Assembly: GCF_003018255.1 (NCBI RefSeq)
Contig: NZ_CP027440.1
Reading direction: 5' to 3' (one strand)
DNA: 64,000 nt
DNA from: Escherichia coli
GTDB lineage: Bacteria; Pseudomonadota; Gammaproteobacteria; Enterobacterales; Enterobacteriaceae
The notes under the pieces are model-generated. The model was given only the letters and a program-made list of their open reading frames with translations, ran no database searches and was not told the DNA's origin. The first letter of the stretch is position 1; each line of letters starts with the position of its first letter. This document shows, in pieces, positions 4,815 to 59,778 of this stretch. Made by a program: the position numbers and the translations under genes.

Positions 4815-6064
<1,250 letters not shown>

Positions 6065-57401: not shown

Positions 57402-57407
57402 GTGAAA

Positions 57408-57440
57408 GCCGGATAAGACGCTTCAAACGTCGCATCCGGC
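57408..57440. repeat. REP-like palindromic unit (minus-strand reading gccggatgcgacg-tttgaag-cgtcttatccggc) between convergent tilS and rof
   Basis: Read from sequence; matches the general REP pattern GCCGGATG...CTTATCCGGC. Confidence 0.5.
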
Positions 57441-57449
57441 GAAAGTCAA

Positions 57450-57704
57450 TCAGGACTCGCTCACCACCACCGTACCGATTTCCGGGTGGCTAAAGCTGGT
57501 AATTTTATCCAGACGCAGCTCGCGGGTTGTACCAGCGGCCTCGACGACCAGATACTCCACATTTTTGCGGGAGACTAAATCGCTGGCCTTCGCCTGCAAT
57601 TTTTCGCCATCTTTCAGCTCAAGTGTCAGCATTAAATGATGCTGGCAGGCGAGCTCAAGATTATCGTAATCATCACAATTGATTGGTTGATACGTATCAT
57701 TCAT
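57450..57704 (-). CDS. rof: Rho-specific inhibitor of transcription termination (Rof/YaeO)
   Basis: ORF track 57450..57710 (-); start at second ATG ([23 protein letters not shown]..., 84 aa). Confidence 0.88.
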
Positions 57705-57897
57705 TGACATAATCGCTCACCAGTAAGTTTGCCGCAGCGTATGCTGCTTTTTCCCTGACAGCCTCAGAAAGGGCGTCGTCGGCAGCCATTTCATTCAGCA
57801 CTTTCAAAACGCAGCCCAGCGCGTCCGGAACGTATCCTAAGTCTCCGCTGGCGATTTCCGCGTACCGCTTGCGTATTAACTCACAATATTTTTCCAC
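57697..57897 (-). CDS. yaeP: Small conserved protein of unknown function (UPF0253 family)
   Basis: ORF track 57697..57915 (-); start tentatively at the GTG giving [24 protein letters not shown]... (66 aa); 8-nt overlap with rof start. Confidence 0.75.
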
Positions 57898-58062
57898 ATG
57901 CCCTCCTGTCAGCACTCTGACTTAACCGTGGATGCAAGTCTAAGCCTACGAAGATAAACTCTGTTTCGCAAGGTGACTATACCACACTCATTTCTGCAAT
58001 ATCAGCGCCGCAACTGCACGTATTCCGTTACAATGGCCTCCTGATTCGAAAGGAGTTTTCTT

Positions 58063-58608
58063 ATGGCGCTTAAAGCGACAATTTATAAAGCGACGGTTAA
58101 TGTGGCCGATCTCGACCGCAACCAGTTTCTCGATGCCTCTCTGACGCTGGCGCGCCACCCTTCAGAAACCCAGGAGCGCATGATGCTGCGCCTGCTGGCG
58201 TGGCTGAAATATGCTGATGAACGTCTGCAATTTACCCGCGGTTTGTGTGCCGATGATGAGCCGGAAGCGTGGCTGCGTAACGATCATTTGGGCATTGATT
58301 TGTGGATTGAACTGGGGCTGCCGGATGAGCGGCGGATTAAGAAAGCCTGCACCCAGGCCGCAGATGTGGCACTGTTTGCCTATAATAGTCGGGCGGCGCA
58401 AATCTGGTGGCAGCAAAATCAGAGCAAATGTGCGCAGTTTGCCAATCTTTCCATCTGGTATCTGGACGATGAACAACTGGCGAAAGTAAGCGCCTTTGCC
58501 GATCGTACCATGACGCTGCAGGCAACGATTCAGGATGGCGTGATCTGGTTATCGGATGATAAGAATAATCTGGAAGTGAACTTAACCGCCTGGCAACAAC
58601 CTTCATGA
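58063..58608 (+). CDS. yaeQ: YaeQ family protein (function unknown)
   Basis: ORF track 58063..58608 (+), 181 aa. Confidence 0.88.
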
Positions 58609-59027
58609 TTGTGATTTCCCGACATGTTGCTATTCCCGATGCTGAGCTTGAGATCACCGCCATTCGTGCGCAGGGCGCGGGCGGGCAGCATGTTAATAAG
58701 ACCTCAACGGCTATTCATCTGCGTTTTGACATTCGGGCGTCCAGCCTGCCAGAGTATTACAAAGAGCGTCTGCTCGCCGCCAGCCATCATTTGATCAGCA
58801 GTGACGGAGTGATTGTCATTAAGGCACAGGAATACCGCAGTCAGGAACTGAACCGCGAAGCGGCTCTGGCCCGGCTGGTGGCAGTGATTAAAGATTTAAC
58901 AACAGAACAAAAAGCCCGACGACCCACGCGCCCCACCCGTGCATCGAAAGAGCGCAGGCTGGCATCGAAAGCACAAAAATCAAGCGTGAAGGCGATGCGC
59001 GGCAAAGTGCGCAGCGGTCGGGAATAA
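58605..59027 (+). CDS. arfB: Alternative ribosome-rescue factor B (peptidyl-tRNA hydrolase, RF-like)
   Basis: ORF track 58605..59027 (+), 140 aa; GGQ motif ([12 protein letters not shown]), basic C-terminal tail; 4-nt overlap with yaeQ. Confidence 0.92.
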
Positions 59028-59040
59028 AAAGAAGGAATGG

Positions 59041-59751
59041 ATGGTGAAAAAAGCGATAGTGACAGCGATGGCTGTAATCAGCCTCTTTACTCTGATGGGT
59101 TGTAATAATCGGGCCGAAGTCGATACGCTTTCTCCGGCGCAGGCTGCCGAACTGAAACCGATGCCGCAAAGTTGGCGCGGCGTGCTGCCGTGTGCTGATT
59201 GCGAAGGAATCGAAACCTCTCTGTTCCTCGAAAAAGACGGAACATGGGTGATGAATGAGCGTTATCTCGGTGCTCGTGAAGAACCTTCCTCCTTCGCTTC
59301 CTACGGTACATGGGCGCGAACCGCTGACAAGCTAGTATTAACCGACAGCAAAGGTGAAAAGTCATATTATCGGGCGAAAGGCGATGCGCTGGAGATGCTC
59401 GATCGTGAAGGCAATCCGATTGAATCGCAGTTCAACTATACGCTAGAACCGGCACAATCCAGTTTACCTATGACGCCGATGACCCTGCGGGGCATGTATT
59501 TTTATATGGCTGATGCGGCGACCTTCACTGATTGCGCGACCGGAAAACGTTTCATGGTAGCGAATAACGCAGAGCTGGAGCGTAGCTACCTGGCTGCGCG
59601 CGGTCACAGTGAAAAACCGGTGTTATTGTCAGTAGAAGGTCACTTTACGCTTGAGGGTAATCCGGATACCGGTGCGCCGACTAAAGTATTGGCACCCGAT
59701 ACGGCGGGTAAATTTTATCCGAACCAGGATTGCAGTAGTTTGGGGCAGTAA
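59041..59751 (+). CDS. nlpE: Outer-membrane lipoprotein NlpE (Cpx-pathway sensor)
   Basis: ORF track 59041..59751 (+), 236 aa; lipobox LMGC, CxxC motif PCADCEG. Confidence 0.93.
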   Translation: MVKKAIVTAMAVISLFTLMGCNNRAEVDTLSPAQAAELKPMPQSWRGVLPCADCEGIETSLFLEKDGTWVMNERYLGAREEPSSFASYGTWARTADKLVLTDSKGEKSYYRAKGDALEMLDREGNPIESQFNYTLEPAQSSLPMTPMTLRGMYFYMADAATFTDCATGKRFMVANNAELERSYLAARGHSEKPVLLSVEGHFTLEGNPDTGAPTKVLAPDTAGKFYPNQDCSSLGQ

Positions 59752-59754
59752 TTG

Positions 59755-59778
59755 AAAGCCGGAGCATTCTCCGGCTTT
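59755..59778. terminator. Bidirectional terminator hairpin (aaagccgga-gcattc-tccggcttt) between convergent nlpE and yaeF
   Basis: Read from sequence; A-tract before and T-tract after the stem. Confidence 0.55.

Follow-up and report, generated by a model that had tools for sequence, protein, structure and literature searches.

The gene pair yaeQ-arfB of Escherichia coli lies in a locus that has been described before. In their paper on Rof, Said et al. (bioRxiv 10.1101/2023.08.30.555460, also PMC11018626) report a five-gene yae locus flanked by REP elements, in which yaeQ and arfB overlap by 4 nt, and in which arfB and rof both lack Shine-Dalgarno (SD) elements and both overlap their upstream open reading frames (ORFs). 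A functional reading of this context has likewise been published: GeCoViz (2022, PMC9252766) took Salmonella yaeQ (STM0239) as a worked example and proposed from its neighbourhood a role for YaeQ in translation. Since the first of these sources describes the junction and the second the proposed role, both the observation and its functional interpretation are already in print.

The junction belongs to a common class. Among unidirectional gene pairs of E. coli, -4 (ATGA) is the commonest spacing, and 24% of pairs are spaced between -8 and +6 nt (PMC10666635). When native E. coli overlaps were placed in reporters, coupling was strict in all pairs tested and was abolished by a spacer of ~20 nt. 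In the same study, pairs whose products are subunits of a heteromeric complex made up 30.4% of those at spacings of -8 to +10 nt, an enrichment of 4.5-fold (PMC10666635).

ArfB itself is well characterised, and it works alone. It releases peptides without help in vitro and in vivo (review PMC8012679), its ribosome-bound structures contain no partner protein, and it hydrolyses peptidyl-tRNA by itself in vitro (PMC8012679). Across genomes, ArfB has no conserved neighbour besides a pseudouridine synthase (Burroughs & Aravind 2019, PMC6514570). It is known from 11 of 21 phyla as well as from mitochondria (Feaga et al.), whereas YaeQ is confined in the literature to Proteobacteria, so ArfB clearly has no need of YaeQ. 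The chromosomal arfB of E. coli does not rescue an ssrA arfA double mutant, whereas the Caulobacter gene can substitute (PMC8012679; Feaga et al.). Feaga et al. ascribe the failure of the E. coli gene to low expression, given that the proteins of the two species have equal activity in vitro.

Here we examine the yaeQ-arfB junction in a 64,000-nt stretch of E. coli contig NZ_CP027440.1 (hereafter the window), and follow it across other genomes. The original prediction, made from the letters of the window, held that the two genes are co-translated and that YaeQ may act in the same stress or quality-control context as ArfB. The reading that we favour, with a probability of about 0.65, is that the overlap is an expression architecture in which arfB is coupled to yaeQ by reinitiation and the ArfB level is kept low, with no obligate partnership between YaeQ and ArfB.

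The yaeQ-arfB junction and its locus

Both direct reading and the ORF list place yaeQ at 58063-58608 (+), encoding 181 aa and ending in a TGA stop at 58606-58608, and arfB at 58605-59027 (+), encoding 140 aa from an ATG start at 58605-58607. The tetranucleotide ATGA at 58605-58608 (+) is common to the yaeQ stop and the arfB start, reading CCT TCA TGA in the first frame and ATG ATT GTG in the second. The 4-nt overlap that had been predicted here is thus borne out.

Gene identities are firm. YaeQ matches Pfam PF07152 over profile positions 1-172 of 173 (E 2.6e-71, 239 bits against a cut-off of 25) and is a PD-(D/E)XK-fold protein. ArfB, the release-factor-independent peptidyl-tRNA hydrolase of ribosome rescue, matches the NCBIfam equivalog NF006718 over residues 1-136 of 140 (201 bits against a cut-off of 100) and also Pfam RF-1. 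The translation contains both features that mark the family, a Lys/Arg-rich C-terminal tail and the GGQ catalytic motif, which forms residues 26-28 within AGGQHVNK and is encoded in frame by GGC GGG CAG at 58680-58688 (+). The third gene of the same-strand run is nlpE at 59041-59751 (+), which starts 13 nt past the arfB stop (NCBIfam NF007814, 398 bits; Pfam NlpE and NlpE_C).

What sets arfB apart within this run is the lack of a ribosome binding site of its own. Upstream of yaeQ, an AAGGAG at 58050-58055 (+) lies 7 nt 5' of the ATG and forms an anti-SD duplex of -8.2 kcal/mol. In the 13-nt arfB-nlpE spacer, the SD of nlpE (AAGAAGGAA, 59029-59037, +) forms one of -5.7 kcal/mol. The 25 bases upstream of arfB, at 58580-58604 (+) and wholly within yaeQ, hold no SD when paired with the 16S 3' end, the best duplex reaching -1.5 kcal/mol. 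RNA at the junction folds no more strongly than its shuffled controls do (z = 0.25), so the arfB AUG should be accessible; in the junction and the leader we found no Rfam family match and no unusual folding. A search between yaeQ, arfB and nlpE recovered neither a terminator-like site nor a strong promoter, and a sigma-70 consensus scan upstream of yaeQ gave no convincing candidate.

The run appears to close at a GC-rich hairpin (AAAGCCGGAG-CATT-CTCCGGCTTT) at 59755-59778, between the convergent genes nlpE and yaeF. This putative terminator is the likely end of the yaeQ-arfB-nlpE transcript. On the other side, divergent from yaeQ, lies the yaeP-rof pair. Its first gene, yaeP (57697-57897, -), matches NCBIfam NF003436 at equivalog level. 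Its true start is probably the GTG at 57897, behind an AGGAGG, and not the longest-ORF start at 57915; the NF003436 alignment begins at residue 6 of the long ORF. The second gene, rof (57450-57710, -), matches NF008636 at equivalog level and shares 14 nt with the end of yaeP, or 8 nt if counted from an alternative start at 57704. Like arfB, rof has no SD (-2.8 kcal/mol), and the yaeP/rof overlap mirrors the yaeQ-arfB junction. At the left edge of the five-gene yae locus, between tilS and rof, a REP-like palindrome (57407-57451) gives a sub-threshold match of 25 bits to the REP-derived naRNA4 model. A 2.4-kb block with genes annotated yaeQ, arfB and nlpE occurs in 5422 of 5426 complete E. coli genomes, and the locus is therefore part of the core genome.

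As a sequence pattern, the ATGA overlap is ordinary. Start and stop codons overlap by 4 nt in about 5-6 of the ~40 co-directional neighbouring frames of the window, and by itself the overlap says no more than chance. Two features carry information beyond it: the missing SD of arfB, and the retention of the tight junction in 35 Enterobacterales genomes, as described below. The spacing of -4 nt falls inside the -8 to +10 nt range of same-strand coupling. Together, the 4-nt overlap, the missing SD of arfB, the lack of an intergenic terminator and the conserved junction support co-translation well at the level of sequence, and this part of the original prediction stands.

A missing SD combined with an ATGA overlap makes termination-reinitiation the likely form of coupling. 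In this model, ribosomes would finish yaeQ at the UGA and re-start at the overlapping AUG, 1 nt upstream. ArfB synthesis would then depend on yaeQ translation and could not exceed a fraction of yaeQ output, and the overlap would act as an expression device that sets a low ArfB level. A gene without an SD that is fed only by reinitiation is expected to yield a modest fraction of upstream output, which fits the weak expression of chromosomal arfB. If arfB is translated only in this way, there would be a simple structural reason why the E. coli gene cannot replace tmRNA and ArfA while the Caulobacter gene can.

Conservation within and beyond Enterobacterales

To collect yaeQ loci, we scanned GTDB genomes, one for each species, with degenerate peptides derived from a 13-sequence YaeQ alignment (a subset of the 52 sequences described below). 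The scan yielded 80 loci, which we translated in all frames and searched with ArfB, YaeQ and NlpE. Of these, 39 came from Enterobacterales (L001-L039); one was truncated, leaving 38 informative.

Within the order, the junction is widely kept. arfB lies directly 3' of yaeQ in 35 of the 38 informative loci, across six enterobacterial families that include Enterobacteriaceae, Erwiniaceae, Yersiniaceae, Hafniaceae and Budviciaceae. Spacing is -4 nt in 23 of these 35 loci and -1 to +7 nt in the others, mostly again without an SD. The exceptions are Brenneria and two Pectobacterium species, in which nlpE comes directly after an intact yaeQ and the locus lacks arfB; there, yaeQ has been retained without its supposed partner.

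The variation in spacing bears on a different account of the overlap, in which it is incidental. The genes would share only a transcript, and arfB would be initiated independently, by an S1-dependent or standby route, on an unstructured start without an SD. Such starts sometimes do initiate alone, the junction RNA is indeed unstructured (z = 0.25), and in ten Enterobacterales the two genes do not overlap at all, being spaced +1 to +7 nt. However, reinitiation operates from -8 to +10 nt and native E. coli overlaps are strictly coupled (PMC10666635), the absence of an SD at arfB is conserved, and low ArfB expression agrees with reinitiation. We consider independent initiation improbable, and reinitiation the better account of arfB translation.

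Does conservation of the junction within the order signal a shared function? The original prediction read the tight linkage that way, and the rest of the locus undercuts this reading. Around the 39 Enterobacterales yaeQ genes, tilS is found in 38, rof in 38, yaeP in 35 and proS in 30. These genes are functionally unrelated and as conserved as arfB, which indicates that the yaeQ-arfB adjacency reflects block synteny. The block tilS-rof-yaeP-yaeQ-arfB-nlpE-proS is equally syntenic throughout. With tilS, rof and proS kept as faithfully as arfB, and with arfB missing from the locus in Pectobacterium and Brenneria, linkage inside the order does not serve as a functional signal. The arrangement may well have arisen once, in the ancestor of Enterobacterales, and have been inherited within this strongly syntenic block.

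Outside the order, the linkage largely disappears. The other 41 loci came from Vibrionales, Aeromonadales, Alteromonadales, Oceanospirillales-type genera, Cellvibrionales, Chromatiales, several Betaproteobacteria and Desulfuromonadales, and in only one of them does arfB lie within 5 kb of yaeQ. We extended the survey to ~12 further lineages, by exact-protein look-up (Mariprofundus, Imhoffiella, Litoribacillus, Hahellaceae, Sulfurimicrobium-like MAGs and others) and from annotated chromids and megaplasmids (Acinetobacter, Palleronia, Phaeobacter, Ralstonia, Vibrio). None of these showed yaeQ next to arfB, apart from relatives of the one exception. A protein search that started from a very divergent YaeQ (P0263) gave 5 proteins and contributed little. 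Adjacency of the two genes thus does not exceed background synteny across distant lineages (35/38 inside the order, 1/41 outside). The original prediction was to fall if yaeQ and arfB proved not to be co-conserved across genomes and no rescue-related phenotype emerged; the first is largely what we find.

No other partner takes the place of ArfB. The neighbours of non-enterobacterial yaeQ are heterogeneous: 66 flanking proteins fall into 58 Pfam families, none seen more than three times, and among these 66 we found no conserved partner, the largest family being LrgA with 3 members. Glyoxalase and GNAT proteins, reported as YaeQ neighbours in 2012, did not stand out in this set.

Several candidates for fused or mobile forms of YaeQ were also set aside. 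The only fusions of YaeQ to ArfB that we saw were a deletion fusion in E. albertii and one chimeric fragment, and the long N-terminal extensions of some YaeQ representatives, checked for hidden ArfB sequence, contained none. We discarded a YaeQ-like ORF on the E. coli plasmid pC27A-3, which proved to be a copy of the chromosomal region riddled with frameshifts. YaeQ matches labelled as plasmid or phage are mostly chromids, megaplasmids and mis-binned pieces of chromosome. YaeQ gave no PADLOC match as a component of a defence system.

The single exception deserves a closer look. In gammaproteobacterial endosymbionts of vestimentiferan tubeworms (Lamellibrachia, Seepiophila, Escarpia and a Chromatiales MAG), the genes are joined in the reverse order, arfB->yaeQ, and the yaeQ ATG lies 11 nt inside arfB (an 11-nt overlap). 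The endosymbiont YaeQ shares only 49% identity with its E. coli counterpart and clusters with those of other marine Gammaproteobacteria, and its nearest relatives (74% and 69% identity) lack the arrangement. This grouping, together with the absence of the pair in the closest relatives, argues that the pairing arose independently and not by transfer of the enterobacterial cluster. For a pre-specified partner, the chance expectation of such a pairing is ~0.02-0.03 (~35-40 genus-level lineages, two adjacent slots, ~3500 genes). The re-creation is suggestive of some selective link between the genes, but it is a single event.

The YaeQ fold and a possible shared pathway

YaeQ is a divergent PD-(D/E)XK-fold protein. 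As PMC3424549 cites Guzzo et al. (2007), the family belongs to the PD-(D/E)XK phosphodiesterase superfamily (PDB 3c0u, 2g3w, 2ot9, 7tcb), and the protein encoded here has both the compact fold of the YaeQ crystal structures and the restriction-endonuclease-like alpha/beta core. The canonical D ... (D/E)-X-K signature is absent: at beta-3, glycine stands in place of lysine (E83-L-G85). The literature describes the YaeQ motif, in the wording of a title, as "a variation of the motif". In an alignment of 52 diverse sequences, E35, R39, G85 and W115 are invariant and H32, P33, S34, R43, E66, W70, W81 and P87 are at least 90% conserved, while some members have D or S at the position of E83. Given the glycine for lysine and the variable E83, the predicted nuclease activity of YaeQ is plausible and not assured.

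A nuclease next to a ribosome-rescue factor invites the idea of a partnership, in which YaeQ would be an RNA-acting PD-(D/E)XK nuclease co-expressed with ArfB in one stress or quality-control pathway. YaeQ might, for example, cut back the mRNA on stalled ribosomes, leaving the short 3' ends favoured by ArfB, or might clear released non-stop mRNA or tRNA. The overlap-coupled pair is retained across Enterobacterales and is joined again, in opposite order and overlapping, in the tubeworm endosymbionts. The protein has a restriction-endonuclease-like fold, some of whose structural neighbours are RNA or tRNA nucleases such as CdiA-CT toxins, and its polar or charged residues H32, E35, R39, R43 and E66 are invariant or nearly so, with E83 mostly acidic. 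ArfB picks out ribosomes that sit on a short, truncated mRNA (PMC7427801). Some 30% of E. coli gene pairs with tight spacing code for subunits of a complex (PMC10666635), and a P. aeruginosa yaeQ mutant shows altered biofilm tolerance to tobramycin, a ribosome-targeting aminoglycoside. In three other lineages a DEAD-box RNA helicase gene lies beside yaeQ, in one case overlapping by 4 nt, but this recurrence was noticed post hoc and would fail correction for the number of families able to recur.

Set against this are the distribution and the chemistry. The linkage is absent in about 40 other lineages, Pectobacterium and Brenneria keep an intact yaeQ with no arfB at the locus, and ArfB occurs in 11 phyla and mitochondria while YaeQ is found only in Proteobacteria. 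ArfB is active without a partner in purified systems (PMC8012679). In YaeQ, the catalytic lysine of (D/E)XK is a glycine and E83 is not invariant, and nuclease activity of YaeQ is unreported in the literature. We therefore hold a shared pathway to be unlikely, though if correct, it would bring a nuclease step into release-factor-independent ribosome rescue.

More specific forms of this idea fare slightly worse, and we rate them as distinctly unlikely. YaeQ could be an RNA-directed PD-(D/E)XK enzyme that acts with ArfB for instance by cutting mRNA on or behind stalled ribosomes, and so either generating the truncated-mRNA complexes that ArfB resolves or cleaning up after them. It could also belong to a wider RNA-stress module with Rho antagonists (rof, srkA/yihE) and DEAD-box helicases. 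Either way, the two overlap-coupled pairings would have been selected, and chromosomal arfB would show little activity in E. coli because a signal inducing the yaeQ promoter is missing.

A physical YaeQ-ArfB heteromer, for which the overlap would secure fixed stoichiometry and co-translational assembly, seems very improbable. In its favour, heteromeric subunits are encoded by 30.4% of E. coli pairs at -8 to +10 nt (PMC10666635), and an overlap is present in both independent yaeQ/arfB pairings. However, when we modelled YaeQ-(GGGGS)6-ArfB as a linked chain in AlphaFold2 with 23 genome-paired sequences, both halves folded and no confident joint model emerged (pTM 0.52), a weak test given the shallow alignment and no PAE. 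ArfB also hydrolyses peptidyl-tRNA alone, its bound structures contain no partner (PMC8012679), and the phyletic patterns of the two proteins do not match.

Reinitiation-coupled expression without partnership remains our preferred reading: reinitiation is probably the mechanism, it probably limits the ArfB level, and a functional partnership is probably lacking, all of which we infer from what the sequences show directly, namely the overlap, the missing SD, the pattern of conservation and the fold. The overlap by itself does not demonstrate a role for YaeQ in ribosome rescue. Placing YaeQ in rescue is guilt by association, drawn from one evolutionary event and one independent recurrence, and is reasonable but weak; both the separation of the two genes elsewhere and the autonomy of ArfB contradict it. 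The proposal that YaeQ shares the rescue or quality-control context of ArfB thus divides in two, with its premise of coupling supported by the sequence and its expectation of co-conservation largely failing. The context argument goes back to what is in essence a single evolutionary event, and is therefore no basis for annotating the YaeQ family as translation-related.

If arfB depends on yaeQ translation, genetics at this locus calls for care. An insertion, transposon or nonsense mutation in yaeQ would be expected to silence arfB and probably to lower nlpE, and phenotypes assigned to yaeQ may as a consequence belong to ArfB or NlpE. The phenotype literature is thin. A yaeQ::kan mutant of E. 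coli K1 colonises the small intestine more poorly, a P. aeruginosa yaeQ transposon mutant has a biofilm-specific advantage under tobramycin, and YaeQ is present in inclusion-body proteomes. Suppression of rfaH defects by multicopy yaeQ, as first claimed, has since been contested. None of the reported phenotypes separates yaeQ from polar effects on arfB or nlpE. The polarity caveat applies to the colonisation defect of K1 yaeQ::kan and to multicopy clones that carry yaeQ with part of arfB.

Comparison with described systems

YaeQ agrees with the PD-(D/E)XK superfamily in fold and family membership and departs from it in its motif, which is non-canonical and reads E83-L-G85 where (D/E)-X-K is expected.

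The junction resembles the termination-reinitiation ATGA pairs of Huber et al. (2019, PMC6728339; 2023, PMC10666635) in its -4 spacing and in having the downstream start inside the upstream coding sequence. Many of those pairs keep an internal SD and encode complex subunits, whereas arfB has no SD, the linked-chain model lent no support to a complex, and the coupling of arfB to yaeQ is predicted.

For a genetic link between a release-factor paralogue and an RNA enzyme, the precedent is prfH-rtcB (PMC6514570), in which a GGQ release-factor paralogue is linked to an RNA repair ligase. That linkage is widely conserved, whereas ArfB has no conserved neighbour but pseudouridine synthase (PMC6514570).

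The GeCoViz case (PMC9252766) displayed Enterobacteriaceae only. With the wider sampling used here, the linkage ends at the boundary of the order, with one independent exception.

The closest system is the yae locus of E. coli K-12 (Said et al.). At the right edge of the locus, where the published REP element would be expected, the window has a plain hairpin. In all else the two are alike: the genes and their order (yaeP-rof <-> yaeQ-arfB-nlpE), the 4-nt overlap and the absence of an SD are shared, and both have the mirror-image yaeP/rof overlap and a REP-like element at the left edge. The window comes from another Escherichia chromosome, is 95-99.6% identical to E. coli genomes and shows no material difference from the K-12 locus.

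Limits of the locus and the yaeP-rof pair

The five-gene locus is bounded on one side by a REP-like palindrome and on the other by a GC hairpin. The palindrome (GCCGGATAAG...CATCCGGC, window 57407-57451) lies between the convergent genes tilS and rof, and the model for the REP-derived naRNA4 gave a sub-threshold match there. At the opposite end, between the convergent nlpE and yaeF, is a plain GC hairpin flanked on either side by T/A runs (window 59755-59778).

Within these limits, yaeP-rof (window 57450-57915, minus strand) has the same design as yaeQ-arfB and is divergent from it. The first 14 nt of rof, or 8 nt if the alternative start at 57704 is used, are shared with the end of yaeP, and rof lacks a Shine-Dalgarno sequence (-2.8 kcal/mol). 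The longest yaeP ORF, from GTG 57915, is probably over-extended at its start; the yaeP family profile begins near GTG 57897, which has AGGAGG upstream.

Loss, fusion and reversal of the yaeQ/arfB pair

In Pectobacteriaceae, arfB has been cleanly lost at the locus from the yaeQ-nlpE interval in two Pectobacterium genomes (L030, L033) and one Brenneria (L035), leaving yaeQ and nlpE almost contiguous at about 5549-5670.

We also found two hybrid proteins. In P0012, a 231-aa protein from a single Escherichia albertii record, YaeQ residues 1-166 are fused in frame to ArfB residues 69-140, and the ArfB GGQ domain is missing. This fusion apparently arose by deletion between short repeats, found in both genes, that encode D-G-V-I; both genes are intact in the E. 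albertii type strain (L001). The second hybrid, P0237 (96 aa), joins ArfB 1-35 to the YaeQ C-terminus and looks like an assembly chimera.

Endosymbionts of the tubeworms Lamellibrachia, Seepiophila and Escarpia carry the pair as arfB followed by yaeQ, the reverse of the window order (L053 2049-3009; L083-L085 2092-3052). Here the yaeQ ATG lies 11 nt inside arfB, and the pair is divergent from a srkA/yihE kinase gene.

Cobalamin context and doubtful records

Cobalamin-biosynthesis genes (cbiC, TP_methylase, cbiA and cbiG) surround yaeQ in Imhoffiella purpurea (L087 1-5552). Cobalamin gene expression is reportedly reduced in a P. aeruginosa yaeQ mutant (PMC3197603); that the two agree is probably coincidence.

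E. coli record CP044308.1, which is labelled as a plasmid of 134 kb and has just 35 annotated features, holds a copy of the yaeQ...nlpE region full of frameshifts (L100 3356-4858). This looks like the product of an error-rich assembly rather than a genuine paralogue carried on a plasmid. In the phage collection, two Acinetobacter phage MD-2021a records of about 115 kb (H25, H26) have an annotated yaeQ with 41.9% identity to the query, the same identity as the A. baumannii copy; these records may represent the border of a prophage or bacterial DNA that was binned wrongly.

RNA helicase and anti-termination neighbours

A DEAD-box RNA helicase gene adjoins yaeQ in three unrelated lineages (L088 2501-4302; L086 910-3040; L061 2092-5564). 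It lies directly downstream of yaeQ with a 4-nt overlap in Mariprofundus ferrooxydans (L088), precedes a small QSregVF_b gene and then yaeQ in a gammaproteobacterial MAG, and is divergent from yaeQ with one gene between them in Chitinibacter. This adjacency may hint at an RNA-related role for YaeQ; the recurrence was noticed post hoc and is not significant given the many families able to recur.

In the tubeworm symbionts, as in a Sulfurimicrobium-like clade of Betaproteobacteria, a gene no more than two away from yaeQ encodes an orthologue of SrkA/YihE, a stress kinase (NCBIfam NF008738; L053 895-1953, minus strand; L092 3506-4501; L093 3061-4056; L096 3442-4512). YihE and Rof have been classed together as Rho-silencing anti-termination factors (Said et al., bioRxiv 10.1101/2023.08.30.555460; PMC11018626), and in E. 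coli the divergent neighbour of yaeQ is rof. YaeQ was first found as a multicopy suppressor of rfaH, a claim since disputed. We regard these possible ties of yaeQ to SrkA/YihE, rof and rfaH as a curious coincidence.
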